Shown here: piece by piece, positions 3,886 through 49,485 of the stretch
Layout: every line of letters begins with the position of its first letter
How positions within the stretch are numbered: the stretch's first letter is position 1
NCBI GenBank assembly: GCA_964606525.1
Contig: CAZSHH010000003.1
Location: 8,006-63,475 of the forward strand
Length of the DNA: 55,470 nucleotides
DNA from: an uncultured Dehalococcoidales bacterium
Lineage (GTDB): Bacteria; Chloroflexota; Dehalococcoidia; Dehalococcoidales; UBA2162
Direction of reading: 5' to 3'
The notes under the pieces: model-generated
Database searches by the model: none
Seen by the model: only the letters and a program-made list of their open reading frames with translations
Told to the model about the DNA's origin: nothing
Translations under genes and position numbers: made by a program

Positions 3886-3908
3886 GAAGCCCGGATATTC
3901 CGGGCTTC
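3886..3908. terminator. GC-rich hairpin, possible terminator
   Basis: 9-bp stem GAAGCCCGG/CCGGGCTTC with loop ATATT. There is an A-run on the 5' side and only a weak T-run on the 3' side, so strand and function are uncertain. Confidence 0.3.
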
Positions 3909-13081: not shown

Positions 13082-13120
13082 AAAAAAGAGCCCGCCATTT
13101 ACCCGGCGGGCTCTTTTTTT
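13082..13120 (-). terminator. rho-independent terminator
   Basis: 9-bp stem GAGCCCGCC / GGCGGGCTC (13088..13096 and 13105..13113). A- and T-runs lie on both sides, directly downstream of the stop of the SBP gene. Confidence 0.7.
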
Positions 13121-13138
13121 ACTAAGAAGAAATATCCT

Positions 13139-14968: not shown

Positions 14969-15328
14969 TTGTTACCTCCTATATATTCCACTAAGCCCAA
15001 CGCGCAGGCACGGTTTCAAGTACTGCGCGTTGGACGTAGCTACAAAGAGAAAAGTGGACAGCAACAGGGAACAAACAAGCATCCAGCTTATCATCCCGCG
15101 TCCTTGGAACTGATTCGAGGAGACGTGATACCATTCTCAATCAACACAACATCCAGACAAGATAACACATTATATATCTAATATGATGTCTACTACGATA
15201 TCTTATATGATATCGATAATGATATTTTAGCACCAGTTACGGGAAAAAAGCAAGCGGGAAAAATAAACTGCAGCATGGTAAAAAGGTGGACAGGATAATG
15301 TTATGAAAGAAGGCGCAGTCCGTTTTTA

Positions 15329-16573
15329 TCAGGGATGATACTGCCGTACAATTTCAGCGACGGCACGAACATTTTCAATCCTGGCCTCATCGGGAATACC
15401 GACATCACCGTTGATTATCAAACCACCACCCTTCCCTACCACATCGATCAGCTTCCGGCAGTAAGCTCTAACCTGGTCAGGCCTGCCGCCGATCATCATC
15501 GAGGAAGGAACGCCCCCTTCGATACAAACTGTATCACCCAGGACCGCTTTCGCTTTAAAGAGATCGGTACGCTCAAACCAATAAACGGCTTTACCGCGGG
15601 GAATATCCTTAATGATTTCCAGGCGGGAAGTACAATCGCCTTCAAAAAGGGGATTGGGTGTGAAACCAGCCTCGATACAGGCCAGCATAAGTTTCTTAAG
15701 TGAAGGCCAGTAGAAGGTCATAAACTGCTTGGGCGACATAAAGCCATCGAGCCCTTTATGGAGCGGGATAAACACCCGGTTGGCTCCTGTAGTTTTACTG
15801 ACCGAGATGGCCTGGTCGATCAAGGCCGGTAAGGCTTTATCGACAGCGGCCAGCAACTTATCCGGATTGCGGTACATATCGAGCATGATGCCATGGGTAC
15901 CGCGAAAAAAATCACCGATATAGTCGAACGGGGCATAGGTTGAGGAAACAAACTGGCGGGGGAAGCCCCGGTGCTCCATTGCCCGGGTCAAATCACCCGC
16001 AGCAGCAATCATTTTCTGGGCTTCCTGGCCGGCTTTTATCAAAGATGCCAAAGCACCGGCGACCTCCGGGCGGCCGAAGACGGAGACATAAGAAGGCATC
16101 CGGGTATACCAGGCCCAACTCAGCGGTCGCAGCCGCTGCAGCGGCTGGAGGGCGCCCCAGGCACGGCCGGAAAAGCGGCGGAGGAGAAAGTCTGAAGGAT
16201 CATCGAGGAAGGCATCATATTCCTCAACCTTCATATATTCACCCTCGACAAACTGGTAAGTGACCTCAGGTTTGCCACCGTGGCCGGGCCAGACCAGCTG
16301 TTTATAATCAAGTATCTCTAAAGTTGGCGCCCAGGCAAGGAGACGGAAAGTATCGGGAAAATTATCCGGCTGGAAATCATTCATGAATTTAATCATGGCA
16401 GCGGACAATTTGGCATAATCGTGCATTGCTTCGGCAAAGCCAAGTCCGGCATATATTACCGGGAAATAGGTCACAAAAGGAGCGAAAGCAACCCGTGCGG
16501 ACGGCCGCAAGGCGACCGCGTCCTGGATCCTCTTCACACGTTCCTGAAACAGTTCTTCCGGACGTTCGTCCAT
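15329..16573 (-). CDS. uroporphyrinogen-decarboxylase (URO-D) fold family protein, function unknown
   Basis: 414-aa ORF with SD AGGAGGT. The C-terminal block GKGGGLIINGDVGIPDEARIENVRAVAEIV resembles the URO-D / MtaA-type TIM-barrel end. It is a paralog of 39778..41109. Confidence 0.65.
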   Translation of the reverse strand: MDERPEELFQERVKRIQDAVALRPSARVAFAPFVTYFPVIYAGLGFAEAMHDYAKLSAAMIKFMNDFQPDNFPDTFRLLAWAPTLEILDYKQLVWPGHGGKPEVTYQFVEGEYMKVEEYDAFLDDPSDFLLRRFSGRAWGALQPLQRLRPLSWAWYTRMPSYVSVFGRPEVAGALASLIKAGQEAQKMIAAAGDLTRAMEHRGFPRQFVSSTYAPFDYIGDFFRGTHGIMLDMYRNPDKLLAAVDKALPALIDQAISVSKTTGANRVFIPLHKGLDGFMSPKQFMTFYWPSLKKLMLACIEAGFTPNPLFEGDCTSRLEIIKDIPRGKAVYWFERTDLFKAKAVLGDTVCIEGGVPSSMMIGGRPDQVRAYCRKLIDVVGKGGGLIINGDVGIPDEARIENVRAVAEIVRQYHP

Positions 16574-16743
16574 GGGGATACCTCCTGGTTACATGGAAGG
16601 TTATTCTGCCGGCCGTAGTGTTGCCGGTTCATCATTCAAATGCAGTATTATTCAGGCGTAATAATGAATTCTATCATACACGAGGGTAATATTGAACCGT
16701 CCGAAACTAAATTGTAACCTCCGGGAAATGAATCAGACAACAA

Positions 16744-16787
16744 TAAAAAACCGGGACCGAGGCGGCCGTTTTCCGCCTCGGTCCCGG
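16744..16787 (-). terminator. rho-independent terminator
   Basis: 15-bp perfect stem CCGGGACCGAGGCGG / CCGCCTCGGTCCCGG (16751..16765 and 16773..16787), followed on the minus strand by TTTTTTATT. Confidence 0.75.
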
Positions 16788-16848
16788 ACAGGCATTGCCC
16801 ATATTTTCCTGTTTCCGCCCTGGCCTTCCGGGGCGGATTGATTATGAA

Positions 16849-18666
16849 CTAGCGGCCCATGGACTTCTTCAACGCCTGGTCGATCCAGACATAGCGGACC
16901 CAGGAATCGCCGGAGAAGTAACCGACACTGAGTTCACCGGAATAATTCTTAAGCCACGGCCACCACATCACGGTCTGGGGGTAGCGGGGGGCGGGGAGGC
17001 AGTAAGCCTGGTCAAGCAAGTATTTCATCAGTTCCCGGGTAATCTTCATCGCACCATTAAAATCAGATACCGCTGCAGCCTGGGATTCAGCTACCTTCTC
17101 CTCGATATAGGGATCGTTTACCTTGGCAGCATTCACCCAGTTATTGATATTAGAATAGTTCGCCTGTTCCGGCCAGGTGGAGGGCGGGGCATAGAAGAGG
17201 GCGAACAACTGCTCATAGCTGGCAGCGAAAGCGATAGGGATAATGGAACCGCTTTCTTTCGGTTCCAGCGTTAAATCGATACCTGCCTGTGCCCACTGCC
17301 CTTTGATAATGGAATAATAATCAACCTCTTTTTCAGTATTGGTGAGGATGATAGAGGTTTTCAAGCCATTGGGATAACCGGCTTCAGCCAGCAGGGCTTT
17401 TGCTTTTTCCGGATTATAAGTAAAGAGCTCCTTGATGGTATCCGGACAATCCGGGTCGTTCAAGCCAAGATAGATATCGTGATAGGCGACAGTATCCCAG
17501 GTAGGCCAACTCAGTATTTGTCCAAGGCCTCGATACAGGCTATCATTGATTGCTTCAAAATCAGTAGCCATAAACAGGGCGCGGCGGACTTTAATATCGG
17601 TGAAAGGCTCCTTGTCGACCCGGATATAGGCCGGGCTGACGCTCCAGGTGGCGGCCGGGGCACTCTTTAATTCGGCAGCACTCTTCAACATCTGTTCGGC
17701 ATCTTCCGGATCGAAACCACCACGCATATCGAGTTTGGCAGTACGTAAAGCAGCTTCCTGAGTCGACAAATCCACCAGGATAAAATACTTAACATTATCG
17801 ATATACGGCAGTTGACTACCTTTCCCCGGCCCGATGGGGTCTTTCATCCAGTACTTGTCATTTTTTTTCAGGGAGACCATGCTGCCGGAAACATAGTCGG
17901 TAATGATGTATGGGCCGGTACCGACATCGTTCTTGGGATCATTCATGGCCGCCCCATATTTATCATAGACTTCTTTGGGATAAATGATAGTCAGGCCGAG
18001 GACACGCATCGAGGCTGCCAGATGATCCTTAAAGGGGAGTGTCATTTGAAGTTCCCAGGGGCCGGTCTTTTCAACATAGAGGCCTCTTGTCGTCGGGAAC
18101 AGCTTATAGTTCATCGAATCGGGATTATTATGAAATTCATCCATGCAGAATTTCACGTCGTCGGCAGTCACTTCACGGCCGGCGACGAGGCGGCTGGCAG
18201 CGTTATCCGGGTCAAGGGCAAAATTAATACCCTGGCGGACTTTAATGGTAGTAACGACTTCCTGCTTTTCCGCGTTCACGACCCAGGAAATGTCTTCGGC
18301 AACAATACCCACGTTAAGGTCAGGAATATTGGTGCTTTCCGACCAGGTAAATTCCTTCGTCCCATACCCCCCGGCATTACCCCGGGTCCAGTCGCCATCC
18401 CAGAGATATTCGTGACTCTGCAGGTGAGGCCAGGCTTTACCAAGCTGCAGCAGATCGAAAGTTGGTTCGGCACCCAACAGCAGGGAAATTGAGCCACCAT
18501 ACTGGGGTTGGGTTTTATCAGGAACGGTAGTGACCGGTTTCGTAGTGGGCACGGTCGTAACCGGTTTCGTAGTCGTAGTTTCTGCCGGTTCACTAGTGCA
18601 ACCAGCCATCAGGAGTAATACGACAACCAGGAAACAGGCAAAGAAAAATAGTGTCTTCTTTATCAT
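16849..18666 (-). CDS. ABC transporter substrate-binding lipoprotein, family 5 (paralog 3, divergent)
   Basis: 605-aa ORF with SD AAGGAGGG. Has lipobox LMAGCTS, a linker with a tandem 9-aa repeat TTKPVTTVP x2 (27-nt period near 18533..18586) and a PQYGGSISLL core. Confidence 0.85.
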   Translation of the reverse strand: MIKKTLFFFACFLVVVLLLMAGCTSEPAETTTTKPVTTVPTTKPVTTVPDKTQPQYGGSISLLLGAEPTFDLLQLGKAWPHLQSHEYLWDGDWTRGNAGGYGTKEFTWSESTNIPDLNVGIVAEDISWVVNAEKQEVVTTIKVRQGINFALDPDNAASRLVAGREVTADDVKFCMDEFHNNPDSMNYKLFPTTRGLYVEKTGPWELQMTLPFKDHLAASMRVLGLTIIYPKEVYDKYGAAMNDPKNDVGTGPYIITDYVSGSMVSLKKNDKYWMKDPIGPGKGSQLPYIDNVKYFILVDLSTQEAALRTAKLDMRGGFDPEDAEQMLKSAAELKSAPAATWSVSPAYIRVDKEPFTDIKVRRALFMATDFEAINDSLYRGLGQILSWPTWDTVAYHDIYLGLNDPDCPDTIKELFTYNPEKAKALLAEAGYPNGLKTSIILTNTEKEVDYYSIIKGQWAQAGIDLTLEPKESGSIIPIAFAASYEQLFALFYAPPSTWPEQANYSNINNWVNAAKVNDPYIEEKVAESQAAAVSDFNGAMKITRELMKYLLDQAYCLPAPRYPQTVMWWPWLKNYSGELSVGYFSGDSWVRYVWIDQALKKSMGR

Positions 18667-19702: not shown

Positions 19703-20626
19703 CTACCCGATCTGTTGAAGCAAACGCTGGGCAGTGATACCGGCAGCTACCCCGTCACCCACAGCAGCAGCGATCTGCCGGGGAGAACCACGCCGGATAT
19801 CTCCGGCGGCAAGAACAAAGGGGATTTCGGTTTCCATATCCGAATTAACGATAACCTGGCCGTCATTATCGAGGGGCACGATGCCGTCAAGATACCCTGT
19901 ATTCGGCACCACCCCGATATGAACCAGCACACCACTCACAGGCAGATCTACTTCAGTGCTATCTACATTATTGCGGACCCGAACCCGCTCCACCCGGACA
20001 CCACCCGCAACTGCAGTCACCACTGAATCCGGGACAAACTCTATTTTAGGTTCGGAAGCCAGACGATCCTGCAAGACCGGGGCTGCCCGGAGTTCACCGC
20101 GGCGGTGAATGAGAAAAACCTGGGAAGCCAGCCGGGCCATATAAATGGCTTCCGAAACAGCGGCATCACCCCCACCGCAAACAGCCACCGCTTGCCCGGT
20201 GAAACGGCTGCCGTCACATAAGGCACAAGTAAAGACTCCTTTATCCTGAAACGCATCCTCACCGGGGACATTTAATTTTTTCATGCGGGAGCCGCCGGCG
20301 AGAATAACGACCGCCGTGGTATAACCGCGTCCGCCGGTAAAACCTACCCACCGGCAGTTATCAAAGAGTTCGAGGCTGTTGACTTCAGCTTGTTTGTACT
20401 GCAGGCCAAATGCGGCTGCTTGAGCCACCATGGCGGAAGCCAATTCAGCCCCGGCGATCCCTTCCGGAAAACCGGGGTAGTTCTCGATCAGAGCAACGTT
20501 TTTCGGGTATCCGCCGAAGCTGTCCTTTTCCAGCAACAGGGTCCGGTATTTCGCCCGGGCTAAATACAGCCCAGCCGTCAAACCAGCCGGGCCGCCGCCG
20601 ACAATGACTGCATCCCAGTCAAACAT
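19703..20626 (-). CDS. thioredoxin-disulfide reductase-like flavoprotein (low-Mr TrxR type)
   Basis: 307-aa ORF with the FAD motif VIVGGGPAGLTAG, the redox dithiol CALCDG (TrxB has CATCDG) and the NADPH motifs GGGDAAVSEA and IHRRGELRA. It starts 29 nt after the stop of the selenoprotein gene. Confidence 0.8.
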   Translation of the reverse strand: MFDWDAVIVGGGPAGLTAGLYLARAKYRTLLLEKDSFGGYPKNVALIENYPGFPEGIAGAELASAMVAQAAAFGLQYKQAEVNSLELFDNCRWVGFTGGRGYTTAVVILAGGSRMKKLNVPGEDAFQDKGVFTCALCDGSRFTGQAVAVCGGGDAAVSEAIYMARLASQVFLIHRRGELRAAPVLQDRLASEPKIEFVPDSVVTAVAGGVRVERVRVRNNVDSTEVDLPVSGVLVHIGVVPNTGYLDGIVPLDNDGQVIVNSDMETEIPFVLAAGDIRRGSPRQIAAAVGDGVAAGITAQRLLQQIG

Positions 20627-20655: not shown

Positions 20656-22257
20656 TTAATACCGGAAATAAACCGGAACCAGGTTTTTATATTTTGCCAC
20701 AAGACGGGACCAGTTTTGGGGCAACTCGATCTTCCTGGTAACGAAAGTATTATTAAAACCACCGGCACTGCGCAGCAAGGCCATAAAAGCGCCGGGGCCG
20801 CCAGCGACGATCAACATGACGTCCTCAGGACTTAAGGGCGGGCGCGGTGGTGTGGCAGCGGACCTGGTATTGACGGCAATATACTCGAGCACACGGGTCC
20901 TGGTCCAACCAGCCCGGGATAATATTTTCGCCCAGGTAGGATTGATGATGAAACAAGAAAGCGCCACAGCGCCCATATTGGCCAGAGCCTGTAAGATGCC
21001 ATCAGCACTCGTTTCAATAGGGATGGCCTGCATAAAGGAATTGGGGAAAAAGACCGTGACGGTGCTGTCTGTATTCTGATAACCACGTTCAACATGGAGC
21101 GGCGGCCAGGGAGACTCTTCTTCATTTTCGCCAATCACCAGGGTGTATTTACCAGGATTACCGATAACCCCCATATCTTCGACTGCCTTACGTGCACCGC
21201 CGATATTTTTTACGATCAGGCCGACCGCCCGGCCGATGGCGGCATTGGCGATATTCCCCGGGCTGAGTGAACCCGAAGAAGAATTGATAAGGATATCATG
21301 ATGGACCGGGCCGTTAACCGCCCAGAAAGGAGCCCAGGAACCGGTACTTACTTCGAAAGTATCGAACCGTGACTTCGGATCCATCAAGGCCTGGACGGCG
21401 GCAATAAGCACCGGCAGATAAGTAGGCAAACAACCAGCCATAACCGCATTGACGGCGATTTTCTCCACCGTGGCTTTACCCAGGCGGGGGATAACCTTAG
21501 TCACCACGTAATCTGCCGGTAAGTCAGTTCCGGCCAGCATTTCTGCGACAGCCTCTTCGGTCGGCGGAATGATGGGGAGACCGTCCGTCCAGCCCCGGCG
21601 GTAAAAGAAACGGTTAACCTCGGACAGACTGCCTTTAAAAACCAAACGGGAAAGGTTTTCCGTTTCTTTTTGGGGTGAAGCCTCACCGGGTGTAAGCGGC
21701 CGAGTCAGGCCGGCAATGATATCATCCATCACGGAGGAAATACCCGAGGCGATATCTTCAGCGATGTTGGACTCACATAAAACCGGTTCCGGCACGATGC
21801 GTACTGAAGGCAAACCTTTCCCGGAAGCAGCCGAATGCGCATCATTCACAAAACCGGTATTGATCAAGACGACAACCGGGGTCCCCAATTTTTCAATAGC
21901 CACGCCGTTGTACACAACGAACTTGGTGCAGGACCCTCAGTCACCGACGGCAGCAACGACTGCATCCACGCCTTTCACCCAATCCGTAAAGGCCGCCCGG
22001 TTTTCCGTCACCGACTCGTCTACGTTGGGCGCCCGGGAATCATAAAGACTGGTCTCGATACCAGGAAACCTGGCTTTCAGATTTTTCTCCACCTCGGCCA
22101 GCATAGGTTTCGCCGCCCGTTTGAAATTTGCGAACAAGCCGATCTTCTTCCCTGCCAGCGAATCCAGGCGGGGAGAAATCCCCTGTAACGGGACAGGGTC
22201 TACTTCTGCCCAAGGATTAAGGACTTCATAACTACCGGCTGTTTTTGGCACATCCAT
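20656..22257 (-). CDS. two-domain selenoprotein, U-G-S-C motif (in-frame TGA at 21937..21939 read as Sec107); 533 aa
   Basis: Track ORFs 21937..22257 and 20656..21915 are in the same frame and are separated only by one TGA: ...VVAAVGD-U-GSC-TKFVVYNGVAIEKLG... SD AAGGGGTG lies only before the ATG at 22257, and there is no SD in the 21 nt after the TGA. The paralog at 47746..49446 has its TGA at the aligned position. Confidence 0.7.
21905..21920 (-). promoter_or_regulatory. weak candidate SECIS-like hairpin
   Basis: On the mRNA, UC-GUUG-UGUA-CAAC-GG forms a 6-bp stem (including one G.U pair) with a 4-nt loop containing G-U. It starts about 16 nt after the UGA. GGGUCC just after the UGA can also pair with GGACCC about 50 nt downstream. 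Confidence 0.3.
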
Positions 22258-23209: not shown

Positions 23210-23364
23210 AGCGTCATAAAATAACTCTTCGATCGTTGACGGCTAAAGCCAAGGCTATGCCGACAGCGGCCAGAAGTCCTGAAAAGCTTCGAGGGTATCA
23301 AAAGGAAACTTTTATACCTCCCGTGTTAGGAAAGGAGAGTTGCCTCAGAGTGTGTGTGTTTCTG

Positions 23365-23392: not shown

Positions 23393-23670
23393 ATTATTAG
23401 CATCAAAAAGAAAGACCTCCGAGCTTTATACCTCAACCCTGTAATGGGGTATGGTATTCAGCCGGTGTCCCGATAGAATCGAGACTGAGAGTATTGCAGG
23501 AAACGGCAATGCCTCCCGGATGCGGAAAGGAGATATCCCATAACTGGGACTGGTTAAGGGACAGGTGTCGTCAAGAGAAGAAACCGGTTGCTTCCGACAG
23601 CAGATAAGCGCCGATGCCATCAATACGCCTCCGGGTCCTGCATAAAGGTAAAAATATGGGAGGGTTAAAA

Positions 23671-35625: not shown

Positions 35626-35689
35626 GAAGGGCACAGGGTACAACAAAAACAGCCGGTAACCTGTTCCGGATGGTGAATTGGAGGTTGAA

Positions 35690-38092
35690 ATGGAAAGAAT
35701 GTTAGCCAGAATCAAACGGGGAGGATTTCCTCTTTGTATCGAAAAAGCCCGCCTGATTACAGAAGCGGTTAAACAAACAGAAGGGGAAACCGGAGTTATA
35801 AGGTATGCCAAAGTTTACTCGCATATGCTGCAAAATATGCCTGTTTTAATCGATAAAGATGAGCTTTTCGTAGGCGAAGGGGCCAGCAAGCCATGGGGGG
35901 CTGAGATCGATCCCTTCCTGGGCGTATGGAAAGAGGAAGAAATCAGAGGAGCGGTTGAGGACGGGATTGTTTCGACTGAGGATATGGATTGGCCGATGTT
36001 GAGAGAATTGGGCAAATACTGGGAGACCAGGTGCTCGGAGTACATTCAAGCGAAAAGTATCAATGATAACATGTTCAAGTACCTGCAAGTTGGCATTACT
36101 CTGCCGCCGATGAAACAGAAAGATGAATTCAGAGGAGCATATGCCGGCAGCGGCCTTTGCCTGTCCTTCAATTTTACCGACTGCCATATGGACTTCGCCA
36201 GGTGGCTTGGTGGACTGAATCTGATCATTCGTGAAGCTGAAGAGGAAATCGAGAGAACAGGGTCACTCTCGCGAGATGATACTGAAAAGAAAGCCTTCCT
36301 TGAAGCATCAATCACGGTACTCAAATCAATCATTGCATTTGCCAACAGATATGCAGATGCAGCCGGGAAAATGGCTGAAAGGGAAAAGAACCCTCTGCGA
36401 AAAACAGAACTTGAGCGAATTGCCGAAGCCTGCCGATGGGTGCCAGCAAATTCACCCAGGAACTTCTTTCAGGCAATGCAATCTTTATGGTTCAACCAGA
36501 TATTATCGACACCAACTTCGACTCATAATCTCGGCAGATTCGATCAATATATGTATCCTTTCTATAAAAAGGACCGTGATGAAGGACGGATTTCCAACGA
36601 CGAAGTCCTGGCTCTGCTGTTTGAATTGCGTATCAAGTGCATGAAGCCTGAGAATATCAAGCTTTCAAGAGCCAAACGTTCCCAGCACGCCGGATACGCC
36701 AAATGGCGTAACATGACCATTGGCGGCGTTAACCCCGAGGGAGAAGACGCTACGAATGAATTGACCTATCTAGTATTAGAGGCAGCCAATAACCTCAGGA
36801 CACCTCATCACACTATTACCCTAAGAGTCCATGATGGGATCCCGGAGGACCTGCTGATCAAGGCATTGGAGGTCGTGAAGACCGGTATCGGAATGCCGGC
36901 GTTAGCCATTGACAAATCGTTTATTGACTATATGACCTCCGGAGGCATCCCTATCCAGGATGCACGCAATTACCACCTGGCCGGTTGTGTTGACCCGGCT
37001 ATTCCGGGAAAAACCAGCTTCCTGGCCGGTTTATTCTTTGTGGTTCCCAAGGTACTGGAGATTTTCTTGAATGACGGGTTAGACCCCCGCACCGGGTTGG
37101 AACTCGGGCCTTTCAAACCGAAGGTTGAAAACTACACGACATTTGATGAGTTTTACGATGCATTCCTGCAATTTCTTGCCTCTTTCATCAGAATATGGCA
37201 TGAGCACAGTTTTGTCACTCAGGGACGTTCTACAGAAATCCAGGGTTACCGCGATGTTGTAGATATACTGGAAACGGCTTTGATGCATAACGGAATGAAG
37301 GTGGGCAAACCATTGATGAGAAGGGTGCCGGAATTTCCTTTTGACTTCAGGGCGGTGATGGTACCCGTAGGCGGGATCAATGTAGCAGACTCACTGGCAG
37401 CGATCAAGAAACTGGTTTTCGACGAAAAAAAGATTACCATGACGCAACTTAAACAAGCGCTGGCTGCCAACTGGGAAGGTTATGAGAATATCAGAAAGAT
37501 ATGCCTTCAGGCTCCAAAATATGGGAATGATATCGATTATGTTGACTCGATCGCGAGAGAGTTATACAAATTCATCATCGACGAGGAGGCGAAACCTCTA
37601 TCGCCTGACCGTCCCACACGCGGAAGAATAAGAGGCATTGGCGGAGCATCCATATCATCGATGTTTGCCGGTGGGACAATAATCGGAGCAACGCCGGACG
37701 GAAGGTTAGCCGGCACTACTCTGTCCGACGGAACAGTGTCCCCTGCCCAGGGACAGGATACCCACGGTCCCACAGCAGTGCTCAGAAGCGCAGCCAAGAT
37801 CGACCAGTCCTTGTGTTCGTCTACACTGCTCAATATGAAGCTTCATCCATCATCACTGACAACCCGGGAAGATATAAAGAAACTGGGCAGTCTGATCATG
37901 GCATACGCTGACATGGGAGGGAAATGGATCCAGTTCAACGTTGTTGGAAACGAGCAGCTGCGGGAAGCTCAGAAATCTCCTGAGAATTATCGCGACTTGA
38001 TCGTGCGAGTAGCCGGCTATAGTGCCTATTTCGTAGACCTTGGCAAAGGGGTTCAGGACGACATTATCAGGCGCATGGAGGTGAGTGTCTAG
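35690..38092 (+). CDS. glycyl radical enzyme, PFL2/glycerol-dehydratase-like class, substrate unknown
   Basis: The ATG at 35690 lies 5 nt after TGGAGG; 800 aa. The C-terminal glycyl radical motif is LIVRVAGYSAYFVDL (Gly776, GGC at 38015..38017). The Cys loop is HLAGCVDPAIPG (Cys433, TGT at 36986..36988). The N-terminus IEKARLITEAVKQTEG...IDKDELFVGE is typical of this class. Confidence 0.9.
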   Translation: MERMLARIKRGGFPLCIEKARLITEAVKQTEGETGVIRYAKVYSHMLQNMPVLIDKDELFVGEGASKPWGAEIDPFLGVWKEEEIRGAVEDGIVSTEDMDWPMLRELGKYWETRCSEYIQAKSINDNMFKYLQVGITLPPMKQKDEFRGAYAGSGLCLSFNFTDCHMDFARWLGGLNLIIREAEEEIERTGSLSRDDTEKKAFLEASITVLKSIIAFANRYADAAGKMAEREKNPLRKTELERIAEACRWVPANSPRNFFQAMQSLWFNQILSTPTSTHNLGRFDQYMYPFYKKDRDEGRISNDEVLALLFELRIKCMKPENIKLSRAKRSQHAGYAKWRNMTIGGVNPEGEDATNELTYLVLEAANNLRTPHHTITLRVHDGIPEDLLIKALEVVKTGIGMPALAIDKSFIDYMTSGGIPIQDARNYHLAGCVDPAIPGKTSFLAGLFFVVPKVLEIFLNDGLDPRTGLELGPFKPKVENYTTFDEFYDAFLQFLASFIRIWHEHSFVTQGRSTEIQGYRDVVDILETALMHNGMKVGKPLMRRVPEFPFDFRAVMVPVGGINVADSLAAIKKLVFDEKKITMTQLKQALAANWEGYENIRKICLQAPKYGNDIDYVDSIARELYKFIIDEEAKPLSPDRPTRGRIRGIGGASISSMFAGGTIIGATPDGRLAGTTLSDGTVSPAQGQDTHGPTAVLRSAAKIDQSLCSSTLLNMKLHPSSLTTREDIKKLGSLIMAYADMGGKWIQFNVVGNEQLREAQKSPENYRDLIVRVAGYSAYFVDLGKGVQDDIIRRMEVSV

Positions 38093-38181
38093 ATAGCCGT
38101 GGTCTTCTCCAGGAAACTGGAAATATACGCGCAAGACCAGTCGAAACTCGATGTGCCGCATCCTGATATTGGGAGATGGTG

Positions 38182-39093
38182 ATGGTACAAGGAACAATTT
38201 TCGACATCCAGACCTATTCTCTGCATGATGGACCTGGCATCAGGACAACCGTCTTCCTTAAAGGCTGTCCCCTGAGTTGCGTCTGGTGTCAGAATCCGGA
38301 ATCTCAGCGTCGTCAGCCTGAATTACTATTCTATTGGGAGAGATGCACCGGCTGCGGCCAATGTGTGCCGGTGTGCCCCAGACAGGCTATCTCGGTGTCA
38401 GATGGAAGATCGCATACCAAGAGAAACCTCTGCGAAGGCTGCGGAAAATGCGCCGATACGTGTCTGAATACCGCCCGCATACTAAGCGGCAGAGTTTGGT
38501 CAGCAACCGACGTTTTTACCGAAGTTAAGAAAGATGACGCTTTCTACAGAAGAAGTGGCGGTGGAATTACCCTCTCCGGAGGAGAACCATTGACTCAGCC
38601 TGAATTCTCGACAGCTATCCTGTCGTTGTGCAAACGAGCCGGCCTGCACACTGCCATCGAGACAACAGGCATGGCCAAGTGGGAAACTCTTGAACAGGTA
38701 CTCGAATACGTCGACCTGGTATTGTATGACCTGAAACATATGGATTCCAGGTCTCATCAAAGGTGTACCGGCATAGGCAACGACCTTATTCTTGAGAACA
38801 TAAAGCAAATTCGAAGGAACTATACTATCCCGATAATAGCCCGAATACCGGTTATCCCAGGCTACAATGCAGACATGCAGAACATTAAAGCTACAGCAAG
38901 ATTCATTGTAAATGAAATAGGGCAAGATACAAAAGTGAACATTCTGGCTTATCACCGATTAGGAGAAAGTAAATACGACCGCCTCGAAAGAGATCAAAGT
39001 GGAGTGAACATCACTCCACCCACTGCAGGACAGATGGCAGCAATTCAGAAGACTATTGAAGCTCTGGGCCTGACAGTTACTATTGGCGTGTGA
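38182..39093 (+). CDS. glycyl-radical enzyme activating protein (radical SAM)
   Basis: GTIFDIQTYSLHDGPGIRTTVFLKGCPLSCVWCQNPE (CxxxCxxC), plus two ferredoxin-like clusters CTGCGQCVPVCP and CEGCGKCADTC. SD GGGAG abuts the first ATG (38176), so the ATG at 38182 is preferred. Confidence 0.9.
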   Translation: MVQGTIFDIQTYSLHDGPGIRTTVFLKGCPLSCVWCQNPESQRRQPELLFYWERCTGCGQCVPVCPRQAISVSDGRSHTKRNLCEGCGKCADTCLNTARILSGRVWSATDVFTEVKKDDAFYRRSGGGITLSGGEPLTQPEFSTAILSLCKRAGLHTAIETTGMAKWETLEQVLEYVDLVLYDLKHMDSRSHQRCTGIGNDLILENIKQIRRNYTIPIIARIPVIPGYNADMQNIKATARFIVNEIGQDTKVNILAYHRLGESKYDRLERDQSGVNITPPTAGQMAAIQKTIEALGLTVTIGV

Positions 39094-39777: not shown

Positions 39778-41109
39778 ATGGCAAAGCAGAAATCAAGGGA
39801 AGAAATGCTGGTAGATGACCGGAAATTAAGGGATGAGATCCAGAAGAAACACGGTAAATCGGTTGAGGAGCTTTACCACGAGCGGGAAAAGAGACTGTAT
39901 GATGCCATTACGCTTAAAGTACCGGACAGAGTCCCGGTTCTCTTTTGCGGAACCTACCCGGCATGCAAATACAGCGGGGTACCGTTCTCGAGTGTTTATT
40001 ATGATGCTCCTGTCTGGAAAAGTGCGCTAAAAAGAATGCTGGTTGATTTTGCGCCCGATGGTTGGGGAAACCTGACATATGGACCAGGTACCGCCCTTGA
40101 TATTCTTGATTCCAATTACGAATGGCATCCCGGTGGTAGACTCCCCCCTGATGTACCCCACCAGATAAACGAACAGGAGTATATGAAAGAGGACGAGTAT
40201 GACCTCTTCCTTCTTGACCCTTCCGACTATATAATCCGGTACTGGATGCCGCGGGTAAATAACTCAATGAAGCCGCTGGCTAAACTCCCGCCCCTGAGAG
40301 AACTGGGCACAAACCCGTTATCTTTCGTTACACTCTTCGATGCACCGGAATTCGAGCAGTTTGCCGGGTTAATGAAAAAGGCCGCACAGGGAAAAAAGAA
40401 ATGGGACAAGGCCGTGGGAAATATTGAACAAGAGATGGCATCGATAGGTTTTCCGCCGGACCCATTCTGGCAGATGGGAGGGGGAGTCAACCCACCCTTC
40501 TCCGGTTTTTCCAACAGCTTCCGCGGCTTCAGGGGCGTGGGTATCGACATGTTCCGAAGGCCGGACAAGCTGAAAGCCGCTCTCAAGAAGTTCCTGGATT
40601 TCCGGATTTCCCAGGCAAAACCGGCAGTTCATCGGGATGGTAAGCCGGCAGTTGGCTCAGCTGGAGAATCGCATAGAGTGTCCGATGAATTTCTGTCAAC
40701 AAAGCAATTTGAGGAATTTGTCTGGCCCAACTGGAAGCGGGCTATTCAAACCACTTTCGATCTTGGATACGATGTTATCCGCATGTTTTTCGAGGGCAAG
40801 CGGGACAACCAGTTGGAGTATTTTACCGATTTTCCCAAAGGTACTTTCTATATCCGCCTTCAAGACACAAATATGGTTCGAGCCAAAGAAATTCTTGGTG
40901 ACGTGGCCTGCCTGTGCGGCAATGTACCTGTTTCATTACTCTGCACCGGATCACCCTCGGAGGTGGATGAATATTGTAAAAAACTGATACAGGCTTGCGG
41001 GAAGAACGGCGGCTTTATCCTGACCTCTTCAACGACCGGTTATGGGGAAACCAAACCGGAAAATGTAAAAGCGATGATAGATTCGGTTGAAAAATACGGC
41101 CGATACTAA
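39778..41109 (+). CDS. URO-D fold family protein (paralog of 15329..16573)
   Basis: 443-aa ORF with SD AAAGGAG. Shares blocks with the other paralog (EYMKxxEYDxFLxDPSD, MxRxPDKLxAA, STKQFxxFxWP). The C-terminus GKNGGFILTSSTTGYGETKPENVKAMIDSVEKYG is URO-D-like. Confidence 0.65.
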   Translation: MAKQKSREEMLVDDRKLRDEIQKKHGKSVEELYHEREKRLYDAITLKVPDRVPVLFCGTYPACKYSGVPFSSVYYDAPVWKSALKRMLVDFAPDGWGNLTYGPGTALDILDSNYEWHPGGRLPPDVPHQINEQEYMKEDEYDLFLLDPSDYIIRYWMPRVNNSMKPLAKLPPLRELGTNPLSFVTLFDAPEFEQFAGLMKKAAQGKKKWDKAVGNIEQEMASIGFPPDPFWQMGGGVNPPFSGFSNSFRGFRGVGIDMFRRPDKLKAALKKFLDFRISQAKPAVHRDGKPAVGSAGESHRVSDEFLSTKQFEEFVWPNWKRAIQTTFDLGYDVIRMFFEGKRDNQLEYFTDFPKGTFYIRLQDTNMVRAKEILGDVACLCGNVPVSLLCTGSPSEVDEYCKKLIQACGKNGGFILTSSTTGYGETKPENVKAMIDSVEKYGRY

Positions 41110-43807: not shown

Positions 43808-44221
43808 TCACGAAAGATTTTCCTTAATTACTTCGACAATTCCCTTGGTGGCGTCCATCTTTACAAAGTCCCCTGTCGTGATTATTTCAAGCGGGTTGCC
43901 ATCAAGTTTATGCACCATCGGAATGTCATTCATAATCGCTACCATTGCCATCACCGGTTCCACTTCAAGACAAATCATACCTATCGGGGCATTGCCCAGT
44001 TGTTTGGCTTGATATGCAACATTCGGTCCAACCGTAGAACCTTTTCCTGTTGAGAAGACGAATATTTTACCAGCGATACTCTGGCCTTCAATATCGTGTC
44101 CTTTGGGGATAACCTTGCCGGTATTTACATCCAGATCCCCCAGGAATGAAAAGGGTCTTTGTGAGACTATTGCTACGCCTTCCACCTTTCCTTTCTTGAC
44201 TGTTTTCCCCTTTAGTATCAT
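43808..44221 (-). CDS. aconitase X swivel-domain subunit (DUF126)
   Basis: 137-aa ORF. GKVEGVAIVSQRPFSFLGDLDVNTGKVI...GQSIAGKIFVFSTGKGSTVG matches the AcnX small subunit pattern. Its SD lies within the end of the upstream gene. Confidence 0.75.
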   Translation of the reverse strand: MILKGKTVKKGKVEGVAIVSQRPFSFLGDLDVNTGKVIPKGHDIEGQSIAGKIFVFSTGKGSTVGPNVAYQAKQLGNAPIGMICLEVEPVMAMVAIMNDIPMVHKLDGNPLEIITTGDFVKMDATKGIVEVIKENLS

Positions 44222-44225
44222 ATTC

Positions 44226-45461
44226 TTACCCTCTCCATTTACCGGTTAAAGCCGCATTGATACAGTCTGTAGTACTTCCGTATTGAATACCGATCCCGCG
44301 CCTGGACTGGTAAGAGGCAGCTCTTGCTGAATTAGTTGCTGCAGTAGAAACCGGCCATGCCAGTTGCTCGTATGGAAAACTCTGGATACATATTCCTGTA
44401 GCGACGACTCCGCCGGCACTTTCGATGATATCTATATATCCGGTAGTTTTAGCCAGAGTGTATGTCTGCTCTGAGGTTGCGGTAAATAGCCGAACATTAT
44501 CAGCGATTCTTTTTCCCTCAAGTAACTGTGCTAATTCTTTTAACTCCCGGATACTCAGATGGGGACAGCCGAAAAAGACCAGTTCGATGTCATCCCTTCT
44601 GGCAGTGTGAAGGCTTTGCCAGGCTTCTTTAATTTCGTGCATCCCGACCTTGATCATCATTTCAGGTTTTTTATTGCCAACTGCTTGTTCCAGGGTCGGG
44701 GCTTCGGGGGTAACCCCAATGATATGACATATGGCGACCGCCCCTGAGACTGGTTGAGGAGAAAGGAAAAACTTCAAGTGGTCGAAAGAGATGTTACCCG
44801 GGATCCCATCAACCACTACGTTCTTTGTCTCGGCCATCCCGCCGATGTAGTAACCAACCGCTCCGTAATCGGCTTCGGAAAAAATTTCCATATCAAGGCC
44901 TTCCATTTCAACCACAATTTGCCCGTATCGGTTCTCGTTTTTCAACAGCAGCATCTCGGGCGTCACTCCGGTAATCGCACTAGCCATGGAAGCCGGCATC
45001 GAATCACGATTGCCTTTTGCACCAAATACTGAGTTGCCGATGATGATACCCGAAGATCCCGGCCACGAAAAAACCCGCCCCGGAATTGGTACATTGCCTA
45101 CCAGATAAGGAGTACAAGTCATCGCCGGTAAAAATCCTTTTGGAATACAAAAACCCATGGTTTCCGCTTGGATCCTGGTTTGATTCTCACAATAGTCTGC
45201 TTTTAACCCCATTGCCCTGGCTGCTTTACAGGCACCGGTCATTCCGGCATGAGTAGTTGTGAACGTTCGTAATTGACCCACACCGTCCAATATCTGGTGC
45301 AGCCATTCTCCCGCCATAAGCCCGGTATGGGCATTATGCACCCTGACCATCTTCGGTGCATCGAATGCCTCACCGTATTCTACAAGCATGGTCATGGCTT
45401 TTTGAACACCTGGGCCATATTCACCCTGGTACATTCGCTTCTCGTCATCGGTCAAAAACAT
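44226..45461 (-). CDS. aconitase X catalytic subunit (DUF521)
   Basis: 411-aa ORF with SD CGGAGGG. The N-terminus MFLTDDEKRMYQGEYGPGVQKAMTMLVEYGEAFDAPKMVRVHNAHTG is typical of the DUF521/AcnX large subunit. Confidence 0.75.
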   Translation of the reverse strand: MFLTDDEKRMYQGEYGPGVQKAMTMLVEYGEAFDAPKMVRVHNAHTGLMAGEWLHQILDGVGQLRTFTTTHAGMTGACKAARAMGLKADYCENQTRIQAETMGFCIPKGFLPAMTCTPYLVGNVPIPGRVFSWPGSSGIIIGNSVFGAKGNRDSMPASMASAITGVTPEMLLLKNENRYGQIVVEMEGLDMEIFSEADYGAVGYYIGGMAETKNVVVDGIPGNISFDHLKFFLSPQPVSGAVAICHIIGVTPEAPTLEQAVGNKKPEMMIKVGMHEIKEAWQSLHTARRDDIELVFFGCPHLSIRELKELAQLLEGKRIADNVRLFTATSEQTYTLAKTTGYIDIIESAGGVVATGICIQSFPYEQLAWPVSTAATNSARAASYQSRRGIGIQYGSTTDCINAALTGKWRG

Positions 45462-46759: not shown

Positions 46760-47719
46760 CTATTGCCGGGCGATCGGCTTCAGCGGAATTTTCGGATCCG
46801 GGAAGCCCGAGCCCATAAGGGCGAACATCATGGTCAGTGCCCTGTCATCGATGCGCTGGAAGTCTTCCCGATGAACGGTCTCAGGTCTGGGGAAAGGCCA
46901 GTCCATTTGCAATAGCGCCTGCTGCACGGTCACCCCTGAGCCATGCAGTTCTCTGGCGCGCGTAATACAGTAAGCCAATGCCGCCCCGCCATCCTCCGGC
47001 GGGATCATGCCGTCATACCCGGGCATGCTATGCCAGGGTGCTGTCGGCTTTGGTTCCCCGGCAGGCCGCCTGCCGCTGAGAGGAAAACTGACACCGGCAG
47101 GTATAAAGCAGAAGACTGCCACGCCGGTATCATCGACGGTTCCTATTTCGTACGCCAGGGACATCATGATGGAAGTAGTGGCTGACTTGGCGGCACAATA
47201 ATTGGCCGGTCCCGGAGGGTCCATGAAAGCAGTGGCCGTGTAGGCGACCACTCCATGATGTCTATTCAGCATCGCGGGTACGAACAGTTGGATGCCGATA
47301 AGCGTACCGCGGGCTGATATTTCATACTGGCGGTCGAGTTGCTTGATCGTAGACTCGAGAATGGGCGCCCCCATGGACATATCCATGGCATTACTCACAT
47401 AGATATCTACCTTGCCAAAAGTATCAATCGCCCGGCGTGCCATCGATTTCATCGAGTCTTCGTCAGACACATCGGTCTCTATAAACAGCGCAGTGCCCGG
47501 CTGGTTCTCATTGTTGATGATTTCTGCGGCGGCTCTACCCCGGTCCGGTGAGAATTCAGCAATGATTAACTTCGCTCCTAACCAGGCCAGGCTCCTTGCC
47601 GTGCCAAGTCCAACATTCCCGCCGGCGCCAGTGACAACGGCGACCTCGCCTGCCAGCATACCCTTATTAAGCTTTGTCTTGTCCATCGCCAGCGGGCCCA
47701 CAGCAAGCTCTTTAACCAT
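46760..47719 (-). CDS. SDR family oxidoreductase (extended C-terminus)
   Basis: 319-aa ORF with SD AAAGGAGGA. Carries EVAVVTGAGGNVGLGTA, SNAM and the catalytic YCAAKSA. Confidence 0.75.
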   Translation of the reverse strand: MVKELAVGPLAMDKTKLNKGMLAGEVAVVTGAGGNVGLGTARSLAWLGAKLIIAEFSPDRGRAAAEIINNENQPGTALFIETDVSDEDSMKSMARRAIDTFGKVDIYVSNAMDMSMGAPILESTIKQLDRQYEISARGTLIGIQLFVPAMLNRHHGVVAYTATAFMDPPGPANYCAAKSATTSIMMSLAYEIGTVDDTGVAVFCFIPAGVSFPLSGRRPAGEPKPTAPWHSMPGYDGMIPPEDGGAALAYCITRARELHGSGVTVQQALLQMDWPFPRPETVHREDFQRIDDRALTMMFALMGSGFPDPKIPLKPIARQ

Positions 47720-47745: not shown

Positions 47746-49446
47746 TCACGGAAGAATATTCCCGGGTAGTCCACAGGTGCCATCGCGACAGTCCATCGGC
47801 GATGGCATTCGGAGAGGTCTGGCATCCTTCTTAACGCCGGCCTTCGGTATCCACGGGTCGATGGATAAGGTACGGACGTAGTGAAAGTCCGTCGTCATCC
47901 AGAACGGATTCCATTCGCCACCGACGACGATAAAGTTAAGGCCCTCAGCCGTCAGGGGGCGCATTCTTCTGGTGCCATCGTTCTTCCCATGCTCTGCCAG
48001 GTAAGAGGCCAGCTTCAATTTAGTGTCGAAACCCTCGTTCTTGAGATTCTTCGCCGCGAGCGGATCGACGATGAAGGTGGCCCCGCCCAGTCCGAGTGAT
48101 TTGATAATCTGGGCCATGCGGTCGGCATGTCCGTCGCCAAAGCCGATTACGGTCCAACCCATGAATAAGGAGACCGTGTTTTCGCTCGCCTTAAAACCAT
48201 GCTGGACGTGCAGCGGTTCCCAGACACTCAGTTCTTCATTCTCACCGCAGCACATGTTATTGTAGTTAACACCGTTGCCGGTGGTCGCAGTAAAATTCTC
48301 GCCAATCTTGGCGCCGGCAAGGTTAATGCTCATCAATGTCCACGTTCGGCCCAGGACCGAGTTGGCATAATTAAATGGACTGAGGGCACCCGAACTGCAA
48401 TTCATGCCGATCTCATTACGGATGGGCCCGTTAACGACCATCATGCTGATGAAAGAAGTCGTCGAGCTGGGCATTGACGCCTGTTTGGAAGCTGCCACAG
48501 CCAGCAGCACCGGCAGGTGTTCCGGCCGGCATCCTGCCATGACCGCATTGACGGCGACTTTCTCAACCGTATACTCGAACCGTTCCTCGTGAGTCGTGAC
48601 TGCCATCCGCCCCACCACCTCTTGCGGATCGTGGTCGGTACCAGTCAGCATCTCCGCCACACGCTCCTCGGTTGGCAGCACGATAGGCAGGCCATCCGTC
48701 CACGCATTCTCCAGGAAAAGCCGGTGCAGGTTGTCCTCGGTGTCCGGCGGCAGAAGCCGGTTGTGCTTCGGCCGTTTCACAATTATCGGGTTTCTCTCTT
48801 CTTCAGTGAGGGGCCGGGTCAGGGCATCGACGATCTCCTGCATAAGGGGACGGCCGGTAATCGGGTCCTCTTTATCGATGTAGCCGTGCAGCACATCCCG
48901 TGGTACGAAGGCCACCGGATGCGGTGGATAGCAGAAGCGCAACATCATACCGTGTGCCTGGCCGTTTAACATGATGAAGTCGGCGAATCGGGACGTGACC
49001 ATCGGAGCCGTCGGTACGCCGCGGTCCTCCAGATTGCGAGCGAATTCGGCGAGACTCGCCGAACAGCCGTCTCAACCACCAACCCCAAGGACGGCAACGG
49101 CACCTTTCGCTGCTATCTCGTCCCAAAGCGCGGGATCGTTGGTGAACATGCCACCCTGCTTACGCCGCAGTTCCGTTTTTAGAGAAGGCATGTTGCGGGA
49201 GAACCAGTCATGCACTTCCTGCATGAATTCCCAGGCGCCGGCGAAACCGGTCTCGACCAGATAGACGGTTTTCCCCTCAATGCTCCCGGAGCGGGGAGCC
49301 ATGTGGACAGGCCGGACTTCGCCTGTCGGCTGCGTGTACGGGTCCTGGATATTGAGACCTGACTCTGGCGTCAGACTCTGCCCGAACACTCCGCTCGGTT
49401 GCCCCCTGGGGTCTAACACGTTAAGTAAGGCCTTGCTGTTTTTCAT
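47746..49446 (-). CDS. two-domain selenoprotein, U-D-G-C motif (in-frame TGA at 49072..49074 read as Sec125); 566 aa; paralog of 20656..22257
   Basis: Track ORFs 49072..49446 and 47746..49002 are in the same frame: ...AVLGVGG-U-DGC-SASLAEFARNLEDRGVPTAPMVTSRFADF... The strong SD GAGGAGGAG lies only before the ATG at 49446. The C-terminal domain is homologous to the paralog (WTDGLPI, VEKxAVNAVMAGC, VNGP). Confidence 0.7.
49045..49063 (-). promoter_or_regulatory. candidate bacterial SECIS hairpin
   Basis: On the mRNA, 8 nt after the UGA, lies a perfect 19-nt palindrome UUCGGCGAG-U-CUCGCCGAA. It forms a 7-8 bp stem with apical loop (A)GUC(U). Confidence 0.45.
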
Positions 49447-49485
49447 TTCTCTCCTCCTCGTTCGGGTCTAACTATTCCTGCGACA

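Follow-up and report, generated by a model that had tools for sequence, protein, structure and literature searches.

The minus-strand segment 47746..49446 of a 55,470-nucleotide stretch of DNA from an uncultured Dehalococcoidales bacterium (hereafter the window) is, with high likelihood, a single gene for a 566-residue selenoprotein, in which a SECIS-like hairpin directs the insertion of selenocysteine (Sec) at codon 125, and in which a putatively redox-active UGSC domain is followed by a large C-terminal domain. Public gene calls divide this gene, designated here P2, into products of 124 and 418 aa, both labeled 'hypothetical protein', but these two adjacent genes very probably encode a single protein of 566 residues, with selenocysteine inserted at the in-frame UGA. 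Sec recoding in P2 is well supported by comparative sequence evidence, from which we infer SelB binding and selenium incorporation. The features on which this reading is based are the following:

49451..49459, minus strand: Shine-Dalgarno-like GAGGAGGAG, with a GGAGG core 6 nt upstream of the ATG at 49446..49444 (direct sequence reading)
47746..49446, minus strand: P2, predicted complete selenoprotein gene, with Sec codon 125 and terminal TGA at 47748..47746
48889..49347, minus strand: UGSC-family domain, residues 34-186, containing U125 and C128 (PF24696)
49072..49074, minus strand: in-frame TGA, proposed Sec codon U125, motif G-G-U-D-G-C (TGA conservation; inside the Pfam UGSC domain)
49044..49064, minus strand: SECIS-like hairpin, stem UCGGCGA/UCGCCGA, loop GUC, outer U-A and G-U pairs (folds, covariation)
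49000..49002, minus strand: internal ATG, Met149, gene-caller start of the 418-aa open reading frame (ORF); start not conserved
47749..48879, minus strand: C-terminal domain, residues ~190-566 (conserved columns; no Pfam/NCBIfam match)
46760..47719, minus strand: short-chain dehydrogenase/reductase (SDR) gene (PF00106 / PF13561), starting 26 nt past the P2 stop
20656..22257, minus strand: paralogue P1, 533 codons, motif G-D-U-G-S-C, TGA at 21939..21937 (alignment; PF24696, 109 bits)

Reading frame and conservation of the TGA

Translation of the P2 frame yields 566 sense codons, with the TGA at codon 125 as the sole interruption. Around this codon the minus strand reads GTT GGT GGT TGA GAC GGC TGT TCG GCG AGT CTC GCC GAA TTC, which translates as VGG-U-DGCSASLAEF (in its longer context, GAVAVLGVGG-U-DGCSASLAEFAR), and the frame runs on into the 418-aa ORF, as had been proposed in an earlier, sequence-only reading of this DNA. 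Orthologues of P2 were found at 78 loci, representing six phyla or more, in metagenome-assembled genomes (MAGs) of the Dehalococcoidales, Acidobacteriota, Bacillota, Desulfobacterota, Verrucomicrobiia, and Leptospirales, and their matches cover query residues ~1-560, running through the TGA. A close relative, CAVTJN01 (locus L002), shows 83-85% identity. Of the 78 sites, 77 carry TGA as the homologous codon, the flanks (...LGVGG-U-DGCSASxAEF...) are kept across all loci, and the 23 codons that separate the TGA from the ATG at 49002 are kept in frame as protein (DGCSASxAEFxRTxE..PTAP) in every orthologue. The one exception, a TGC in a Desulfobacteraceae MAG (locus L070, protein P0014), places the Cys form in a single 599-aa ORF. 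Many single-ORF homologues at a greater distance (530-620 aa) also carry C-x-x-C at the site (GHCSTC, GSCPGC, GDCGSC, GACGSC; P0257, P0260, P0269, P0303, P0321, P0368). P2 hence displays features typical of bacterial selenoprotein genes, namely conserved coding on both sides of the UGA and Cys homologues aligned at the UGA.

Besides P2, the only TGA-interrupted gene in the window is its paralogue P1, which carries U-G-S-C where P2 carries U-D-G-C. The two proteins share 32.5% identity over 492 residues (E 5e-63), and the pairwise alignment agrees with the previous proposal that both TGAs fall in one column, with the flanking blocks quoted in its support aligning as described. The TGA of P1 is retained in 75 of its 77 metagenomic relatives. 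The hairpin of P1 itself folds weakly, and RNAalifold returned no consensus hairpin for P1-type sequences.

The hairpin downstream of the TGA

The sequence-only reading also reported a perfect hairpin eight nucleotides after the UGA of P2. The 19-nt palindrome in question, TTCGGCGAGTCTCGCCGAA, is indeed found at 49063..49045, 8 nt past the TGA, and minimum free energy folding yields a stem of 8-9 bp capped by a GUC loop. In the core stem, 49062..49056 pairs with 49052..49046, leaving GUC at 49055..49053 as the loop. A 48-nt piece containing the hairpin has a z-score of -2.7, with 3 of 200 shuffles folding equally well, and a 66-nt piece has a z-score of -0.84, which carries no significance by itself. 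Just six perfect hairpins (stem of at least 8 bp, loop of 3-5 nt) occur in the whole window, against ~2.7 in Markov resamples, so that the presence of one exactly behind the P2 TGA is unlikely to be due to chance (roughly 1e-3).

The sequence-only reading had allowed for a hairpin that is not conserved, yet folding of the individual orthologues recovers it in every sequence with a TGA. The consensus that follows the UGA, UCGGCGA-GUN-UCGCCGA, hardly varies in nucleotide sequence, synonymous sites included. Across the orthologue alignment, 94.4% of the cells of the stem are paired, compared to 27-46% in slid controls, with none of 500 shuffles performing as well, and RNAalifold independently yields the same helix. 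Pair counts across orthologues reveal double-sided changes at three to four stem pairs, with compensatory substitutions of G-C by A-U in six sequences, by C-G in one, and by U-A in another; the single change to C-G alters two amino acids too. Codon usage within the hairpin is likewise skewed, with Ser and Ala encoded by TCG (92%), GCG (99%), AGT (100%), and GCC (91%), whereas the same codons account for 16, 29, 15, and 46%, respectively, in the gene bodies. Unlike these frozen synonymous positions of the stem and loop, flanking codons vary freely. As judged from these sequence comparisons, the P2 hairpin is conserved beyond the requirements of the protein. In the Cys orthologue P0014 the hairpin has decayed, with loss of the GU loop and of two stem pairs, and paralogue classes with U-I-G-C and U-P-G-C motifs feature other stem sequences at an equal distance, with GUA or GGUC loops.

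The P2 hairpin fits bacterial SECIS elements, as represented by fdhF of E. coli and by the bSECISearch model, in its position, size, and GU loop. As in elements of the E. coli fdhF/fdnG type and in the bSECISearch consensus, the hairpin is embedded in the coding sequence immediately 3' of the UGA, with 16 nt separating the UGA from the apical loop, exposes G and U in that loop, and shows conservation imposed on synonymous sites. It differs from them in being very short, with a perfect 8-9 bp stem and a loop of just 3 nt, in lacking a bulged U, and in showing a near-identical sequence across phyla, rather than conservation of structure alone. The comparison with SECIS covariance models that had been suggested on the basis of the sequence did not bear fruit, since Rfam scans yielded no SECIS family either at the gathering score or at E <= 10; the only match, to Betaproteobacteria-1 (E 3.3), is spurious. 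The diversity of bacterial SECIS elements is poorly covered by Rfam, and the lack of a match therefore carries little weight.

Alternative explanations and proposed mechanism

Gene callers consistently annotate this locus as two genes, namely a UGSC fragment of 124 aa that ends with the TGA and a separate protein of 418 aa starting at the ATG that does exist at 49002. Under this arrangement, the 23-codon interval that separates TGA and ATG would not be expected to persist in frame as protein in all orthologues, nor would the Pfam UGSC domain bridge the gap. Moreover, the codon aligned with Met149 encodes Ile (ATC, ATT, or ATA) in 50 of 78 orthologues, with Val in 10, Met in 9, and Leu in 5, so that the replacement of the TGA by a stop plus a separate start, also contemplated in the sequence-only reading, is not seen. 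Direct reading of the sequence ahead of this ATG finds no Shine-Dalgarno-like motif comparable to that of the upstream start. Together with the existence of single-ORF Cys forms, these observations make two separate genes highly improbable. A nonsense mutation of a former Cys codon, or a sequencing error to the same effect, would require a single substitution (TGC or TGT to TGA), but the same TGA is present in 77 independent assemblies of different phyla and in 75 relatives of P1, and the frame past the TGA is intact and conserved. Conservation already refutes this explanation, which can be given virtually no credence.

Read-through of the UGA without Sec, through near-cognate Trp or Cys insertion or through a lineage-specific reassignment, with the hairpin as a mere stimulator of read-through, is very unlikely. 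Homologues lacking the TGA have Cys, as this explanation would accommodate, and no Sec machinery turned up in the window, with none of selA, selB, selC, and selD present and no tRNA found at all; ARAGORN likewise detected no tRNA-Sec in the flanks of related loci. However, TGA is the ordinary stop of 7 of the 33 long ORFs in the window, P2 included, which indicates that the code has not been reassigned, and the same TGA and hairpin recur in phyla known to use Sec. The fit of the hairpin to bacterial SECIS elements in position, size, and GU loop also argues against simple read-through. Furthermore, the UGSC domain is a recognized Sec/Cys family (PMC2398784, PMC13188914). Dehalococcoidia MAGs, with 46-49 selenoprotein genes, stand near the top of bacteria in selenoprotein content (PMC13326102).

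In the selenoprotein model, translation would start at the ATG at 49446, behind the GGAGG site, and meet the UGA at codon 125. The hairpin UUCGGCGA-GUC-UCGCCGAA, 8 nt downstream and with a G-U in its apical loop, would then act as a bacterial SECIS element and recruit SelB-GTP-Sec-tRNA(Sec), and selenocysteine would be inserted at the UGA, with the ribosome traversing the hairpin and terminating at 47746. Sec125 is predicted to lie in G-G-U-D-G-C, just past a beta-strand of the alpha/beta UGSC-family domain, and the U-x-x-C motif suggests that Sec125 and Cys128 most likely form a redox-active selenenylsulfide. The ~380-residue C-terminal domain is presumed to bind the substrate. As suggested by gene neighborhood, the P2 enzyme probably works with the downstream SDR, and P1 would be paired instead with a thioredoxin-reductase-like flavoprotein.

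Domain architecture and gene neighborhood

In aquatic metagenomes, few predicted selenoprotein families are as abundant as UGSC. The N-terminal domain of P2 belongs to this already described family, a relationship that the sequence-only reading overlooked: Pfam PF24696 (UGSC) spans the P2 TGA with 80-83 bits (E 2.9e-22 / 3.7e-23) against a gathering cut-off of 25. UGSC is a known predicted Sec/Cys family, the 'UGSC-containing protein' of Zhang and Gladyshev (PMC2398784; PMC13188914). P2 places its Sec at the U position of the family, in a U-x-x-C preceded by a hydrophobic strand with a terminal G-x-G, and shares with it the coexistence of Sec and Cys forms and a presumed redox function. It departs from the family in its length (566 residues vs. 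~150), in its motif (U-D-G-C vs. U-G-S-C), and in an extra C-terminal domain of ~380 aa that lacks a family model. The NCBIfam equivalog NF041046, a profile of 147 positions, scores P2, a 566-aa protein with U-D-G-C rather than U-G-S-C, at 55.2 bits, under its curated cut-off of 125, and NCBI's pipeline would hence not name P2. A search of PDB sequences with the N-terminal profile returned nothing meaningful.

The C-terminal domain features several conserved motifs (WTDGLPxxxPTEE, AVNAVMAG, VNGP, ANxxxGR, GENEE) and a C-x4-C tail (C553, C558) specific to the P2 clade. It has no match in Pfam or NCBIfam even at E <= 10, and its profile finds no match among PDB sequences. An AF2 model of the domain (pLDDT 76.7) retrieved nothing significant with Foldseek. 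The top 12 ranks, and the only recurring matches, correspond to Toblerone-fold cyclic amide hydrolases (AtzD, barbiturase, orotic acid hydrolase); with E of at least 0.027, TM-scores of ~0.2, and rmsd of 10-12 Å, Toblerone-fold identity was rejected as evidence, and the modeled resemblance may serve at most as a lead. The full-length AF2 model of the Cys orthologue P0014 (pLDDT 55) is too poor to show the orientation of Sec toward the C-terminal domain. The family comprises 5580 clusters at 50% identity, and the redox motif is missing in many single-ORF members (e.g., P0244, P0246, P0263, P0270), indicating that the C-terminal domain does not strictly depend on a U/C-x-x-C partner. A 'UGSC/Unknown_1 fusion' is mentioned in the 2008 GOS paper (PMC2398784), and Unknown_1 may correspond to this C-terminal domain, in which case the fusion is not new. 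The element that otherwise appears novel here is the fusion of a U-D-G-C variant of UGSC to a domain of ~380 aa for which Pfam, NCBIfam, and PDB give no match.

The SDR gene at 46760..47719 is a probable operon partner of P2. In 32 cases, the P2 orthologue is followed on its own strand, within 300 nt, by an SDR of ~315 aa, and such an SDR is present in 44 of 79 loci. Synteny is conserved for this downstream SDR alone, and not for the other neighbors in the window (AcnX, a hydrolase, and other SDRs). The family is reminiscent of GrdB (glycine/betaine/sarcosine reductase) and PrdB (D-proline reductase), which also present a U-x-x-C in an alpha/beta protein of anaerobes and form multi-copy families, substrate-specific in appearance, with an adjacent thioredoxin-reductase gene, seen here at P1. 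Unlike GrdB and PrdB, P2 has no match to PF07355 (Gly_reductase) at E <= 10, its neighborhood lacks a GrdA/GrdC or pyruvoyl PrdA/GrdE partner, and its clade is paired with an SDR, so that the likeness should be regarded as no more than an analogy.

On a more speculative note, P2 might represent an unrecognized and very large family of two-domain selenoenzymes, combining a UGSC redox module with a catalytic domain of new fold and with dedicated SDR or thioredoxin-reductase-like partners, that encompasses thousands of clusters and is multi-copy in the Dehalococcoidales, Acidobacteriota, and Desulfobacterota. If this doubtful but possible scenario were true, the P2 family would constitute a new selenium-dependent reductase system of anaerobes, with a logic comparable to that of glycine and proline reductases. 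On the selenoprotein reading of P2, thousands of database entries for its family would be truncated halves of one selenoprotein that NCBI's curated UGSC model does not capture. With the clade both split and missed by NF041046, the selenoproteomes of the Dehalococcoidales, Acidobacteriota, and their relatives may be undercounted, if homology-based pipelines miss it too. The near-invariant SECIS pattern, UGA-N9-UCGGCGAGUNUCGCCGA, would allow such genes to be found and corrected. Leads for UGSC biochemistry are provided by the large conserved fused domain, by the recurrent SDR partner, and by the thioredoxin-reductase-like partner of P1, a TrxB-like gene (19703..20626; TIGR01292, 303 bits) that follows P1 and is found near P1-type genes in 7 metagenome loci.

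The reading frame of P2 and its internal TGA

Read from its ATG, the gene under study, P2, comprises 566 sense codons and ends in a TGA stop (47748..47746, minus strand), its frame being interrupted once only, by a TGA at codon 125 (49074..49072).

49446..49444, minus strand: ATG start codon of P2, with GAGGAGGAG upstream, the GGAGG core lying 6 nt 5' of the ATG

The codons flanking the internal TGA translate as VGG-U-DGCSASLAEF, as the sequence-only reading had it, and the continuation in the same frame into a 418-aa open reading frame (ORF), which it had also claimed, is borne out. The feature is confirmed as real. A mechanical ORF listing splits P2 in two (49072..49446, 124 aa; 47746..49002, 418 aa), and the same two separate gene calls appear in a public assembly of identical DNA (Logan SRR8925802). 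TGA terminates seven of the 33 long ORFs in the window, P2 among them, and the genetic code is therefore standard. The comparative sequence evidence supports the interpretation originally put forward, in which P2 is one translation unit whose UGA at codon 125 is recoded as selenocysteine (Sec) with the help of a downstream hairpin.

Conservation of the TGA among relatives

Searching protein databases with P2 translated through the TGA retrieved 6492 relatives, nearly all of them 'hypothetical proteins' of 417–435 aa with their N-terminus just past the TGA, while the N-terminal part used as query returned ~125-aa fragments, every one ending at the TGA. In a Desulfobacteraceae MAG, a relative encoded by one 599-aa ORF (P0014) covers 98% of the query and reads GVAG-C-DGCSASLAEF at the site. 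At the DNA level, 79 loci were sampled from species-representative genomes of the Dehalococcoidales, other Chloroflexota, Acidobacteriota (Acidiferrales, Terriglobia), Bacillota, Desulfobacterota, Verrucomicrobiia and Leptospirales. The homologous site was located in 78 of these, and all but one carry an in-frame TGA, the exception (L070, the locus of P0014) having TGC. The protein sequence on either side of the TGA is conserved across the 78 loci, and among orthologues in-frame conservation also holds for the 23 codons that separate the TGA from the downstream ORF's 'start'. The alternative named beforehand, a terminating TGA followed by a separate start, is at odds with the column of that supposed start, Met149, where only 9 of the 78 orthologues have Met, as against 50 with Ile, 10 with Val and 5 with Leu; in this alignment the start is not conserved.

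The main argument of the sequence-only reading was that two independent TGAs fall in one alignment column, the other being that of the paralogue P1.

20656..22257, minus strand: P1, 533 codons, motif G-D-U-G-S-C, TGA at 21939..21937

P1 and P2 are 32.5% identical over 492 residues and share the TGA column. Eighty metagenomic loci fetched with a P1-type profile gave 77 alignable sites, with TGA in 75 and GCG (Ala) in two; since the TGA is kept in these relatives, each TGA being conserved in its own clade, the argument holds. In one metagenome sub-clade (L145–L147, L150, L151, L153, L156) the motif reads G-H-U-G-S-S-T-P-W, Sec being kept and the usual resolving Cys at +3 being Ser.

Searching 1.84 billion cluster representatives with a profile yielded 5580 clusters (1216 at E <= 1e-30), many of them single ORFs of 530–620 aa with a two-domain layout like that of P2. 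Inspection of 16 single-ORF members showed C-x-x-C at the site in six (GHCSTC, GSCPGC, GDCGSC, GACGSC), Ser in one and no Cys in several others. These single-ORF forms and the varied residues at the site indicate that the two-domain protein is the ancestral unit of the family and that Sec/Cys exchange at the U125 column is recurrent. Many members of the single-ORF set (P0244, P0246, P0263, P0270, P0293, P0298, P0256, P0303) are without Cys or Sec at the site, and several single-ORF representatives begin with a signal peptide or a twin-arginine signal at the N-terminus, which suggests export and a non-redox nature for parts of the family.

The hairpin downstream of the UGA

49063..49045, minus strand: 19-nt palindrome UUCGGCGAGUCUCGCCGAA, eight nt after the UGA

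This palindrome, found where it had been reported, folds into the proposed hairpin with a GUC loop, its stem being computed as 8–9 bp instead of 7–8 bp. A 48-nt piece containing it beats 197 of 200 dinucleotide shuffles in folding (z -2.7); the fold of a 66-nt piece is unremarkable (z -0.84). Perfect hairpins of comparable quality number only six in the 55-kb window, and the other five (stem of at least 8 bp, 3–5 nt loop; at 3887, 10911, 12895, 28850 and 38999) may be terminators.

Lack of conservation, the outcome that would have counted against the hairpin, was not observed: all TGA orthologues fold a hairpin of the same form at the same position. Across 79 sequences aligned without gaps, pairing holds in 94.4% of the cells for the nine proposed pairs; sliding the 3' arm by 1–3 columns lowers this to 27–46%. 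The observed values were matched by none of 500 shuffles, and RNAalifold returned the identical helix de novo. Four of the nine stem pairs show double-sided changes; compensatory exchanges are seen from G-C to A-U in six sequences (UCA...GCU), to C-G in L042, with an Ala-Ala to Pro-Gly change, and to U-A in L065. Codon freezing, measured against the share of each codon for its amino acid in the bodies of these genes, is stronger evidence than this covariation. The hairpin Ser is TCG in 69/75 (16% in gene bodies), the Ala GCG in 75/76 (29%), the next Ser AGT in 77/77 (15%) and the second Ala GCC in 69/76 (46%), each GCT at the latter being paired with TCA or as a wobble; the adjacent codons are unconstrained, Gly at +2 and Glu/Asp at +9 varying freely. 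Such patterns point to RNA-level selection on the hairpin, the loop of which is constant as G-U-N. In the single Cys orthologue, GCC, AGC and UUA stand in place of GCG, AGU and NUC, giving a wider loop without the GU, and the constraints are gone. P1-type genes have a more variable hairpin, which is weak in the copy found in the window. In adjacent paralogues with U-I-G-C or U-P-G-C, stem sequences are unrelated and the hairpin is kept, with a GUA or GGUC loop 17–18 nt past the UGA. These further classes lie a few kb from P2-type genes, each with its own strong hairpin:

L004, ~10093
L006, ~10081
L034, ~9897
L072, ~8106

Bacterial SECIS elements lie inside the ORF and carry a G/U in the loop that is contacted by SelB. 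The P2 hairpin is like them in its ORF-internal position, in the 16 nt from UGA to apical loop and in its loop G/U. The suggested comparison with covariance models failed to lend support, as Rfam models gave no match to the hairpin; we place little weight on this result, given the diversity of bacterial SECIS elements and Rfam's poor coverage of them.

Family, C-terminal domain and genomic context

Residues 34–186 of P2 (U replaced by C) match Pfam PF24696 'UGSC family' (E 3e-22, 80–83 bits; gathering score 25) across codon 125 without a break, whereas the curated NCBIfam equivalog NF041046 'UGSC family (seleno)protein' gives only 55 bits where its cut-off is 125. The 2008 paper on Global Ocean Sampling data places the 'UGSC-containing protein' among the most abundant predicted selenoprotein families (PMC2398784), and a 2026 review includes the UGSC family among predicted prokaryotic selenoproteins (PMC13188914). 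The find is therefore a member of an already described family: P2 is a selenoprotein gene that belongs to a predicted family already known, and its architecture is a variant one in which U-D-G-C is joined to a large uncharacterised domain. The 2008 paper also mentions a 'UGSC/Unknown_1 fusion' (PMC2398784), and a fusion as in P2 may therefore have been described before. Curated models and annotation pipelines now in use miss P2, which has annotation value and offers a lead towards the function of the UGSC family.

Neither Pfam nor NCBIfam gives a match to residues ~190–566, even at a threshold of E <= 10, and PDB sequences give none either. AlphaFold2 models the 418-aa part with moderate confidence (pLDDT 76.7), and Foldseek found nothing significant for this model in the PDB; Toblerone-fold amide hydrolases, at the top of the list, were rejected (E 0.027, TM 0.2). 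Conserved motifs (566-residue numbering) are W249-T-D-G-L-P...P-T-E-E, AVNAVMAG, VNGP, ANxxxGR and GENEE, with a clade-specific pair at the C-terminus, C553-x4-C558. The full-length model of the Cys orthologue is too poor to position Sec relative to this domain. The many family members without Cys at the site warn that the C-terminal domain can function without the redox motif.

Among the neighbours of P2-type genes only one recurs, a short-chain dehydrogenase/reductase (SDR) of ~315 aa, found in 44 of 79 loci and in 32 cases on the same strand no more than 300 nt downstream; other neighbours of P2 show no conservation at orthologous loci. A TrxB-like gene adjoins P1-type genes in seven metagenomic loci.

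46760..47719: SDR gene of the window, beginning 26 nt past the P2 stop
19703..20626: thioredoxin-reductase-like gene directly after P1 (TIGR01292, 303 bits)

In the proposed mechanism, the hairpin would bind SelB-GTP-Sec-tRNA(Sec), and Sec125 with Cys128 would form a redox-active selenenylsulfide at a strand-to-helix turn of the alpha/beta domain, the C-terminal domain supplying the substrate site; reducing equivalents may arrive via the SDR in the P2 clade and via the TrxB-like flavoprotein in the P1 clade. None of selA, selB, selC and selD lies within the 55-kb window. With 46–49 selenoprotein genes, certain Dehalococcoidia are among the known bacteria richest in selenoproteins (PMC13326102), which makes Sec use in the source lineage plausible without being proof for this organism.

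The family is multi-copy: the window holds two members, L004, L006, L027, L034, L041 and L072 have copies in tandem or close by, and several MAGs each have two separate family loci. Two genes downstream of P2 lie aconitase-X large and small subunits (43808..45461, minus strand), weakly cis-3-hydroxy-L-proline-dehydratase-like and not conserved beside P2 orthologues. Three paralogous family-5 solute-binding proteins and two URO-D-like (methyltransferase MtaA/CmuA-like) genes (10961..18666, minus strand; 39778..41109, plus strand) belong to types that recur near some P1-type loci. A glycyl-radical enzyme (PFL-like) beside its radical-SAM activase (35678..39093, plus strand) is the mark of a strict anaerobe; its best NCBIfam matches, all below cut-off, are of the dehydratase/lyase kind. 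Upstream of three NAD-type aldehyde dehydrogenase paralogues in tandem (PF00171, 23614..28151) lie two tandem Moco/tungsten-cofactor riboswitch aptamers (23215..23353 and 23405..23548, plus strand; 75 and 60 bits), an unusual regulon for such a riboswitch, since these dehydrogenases are not molybdenum enzymes.
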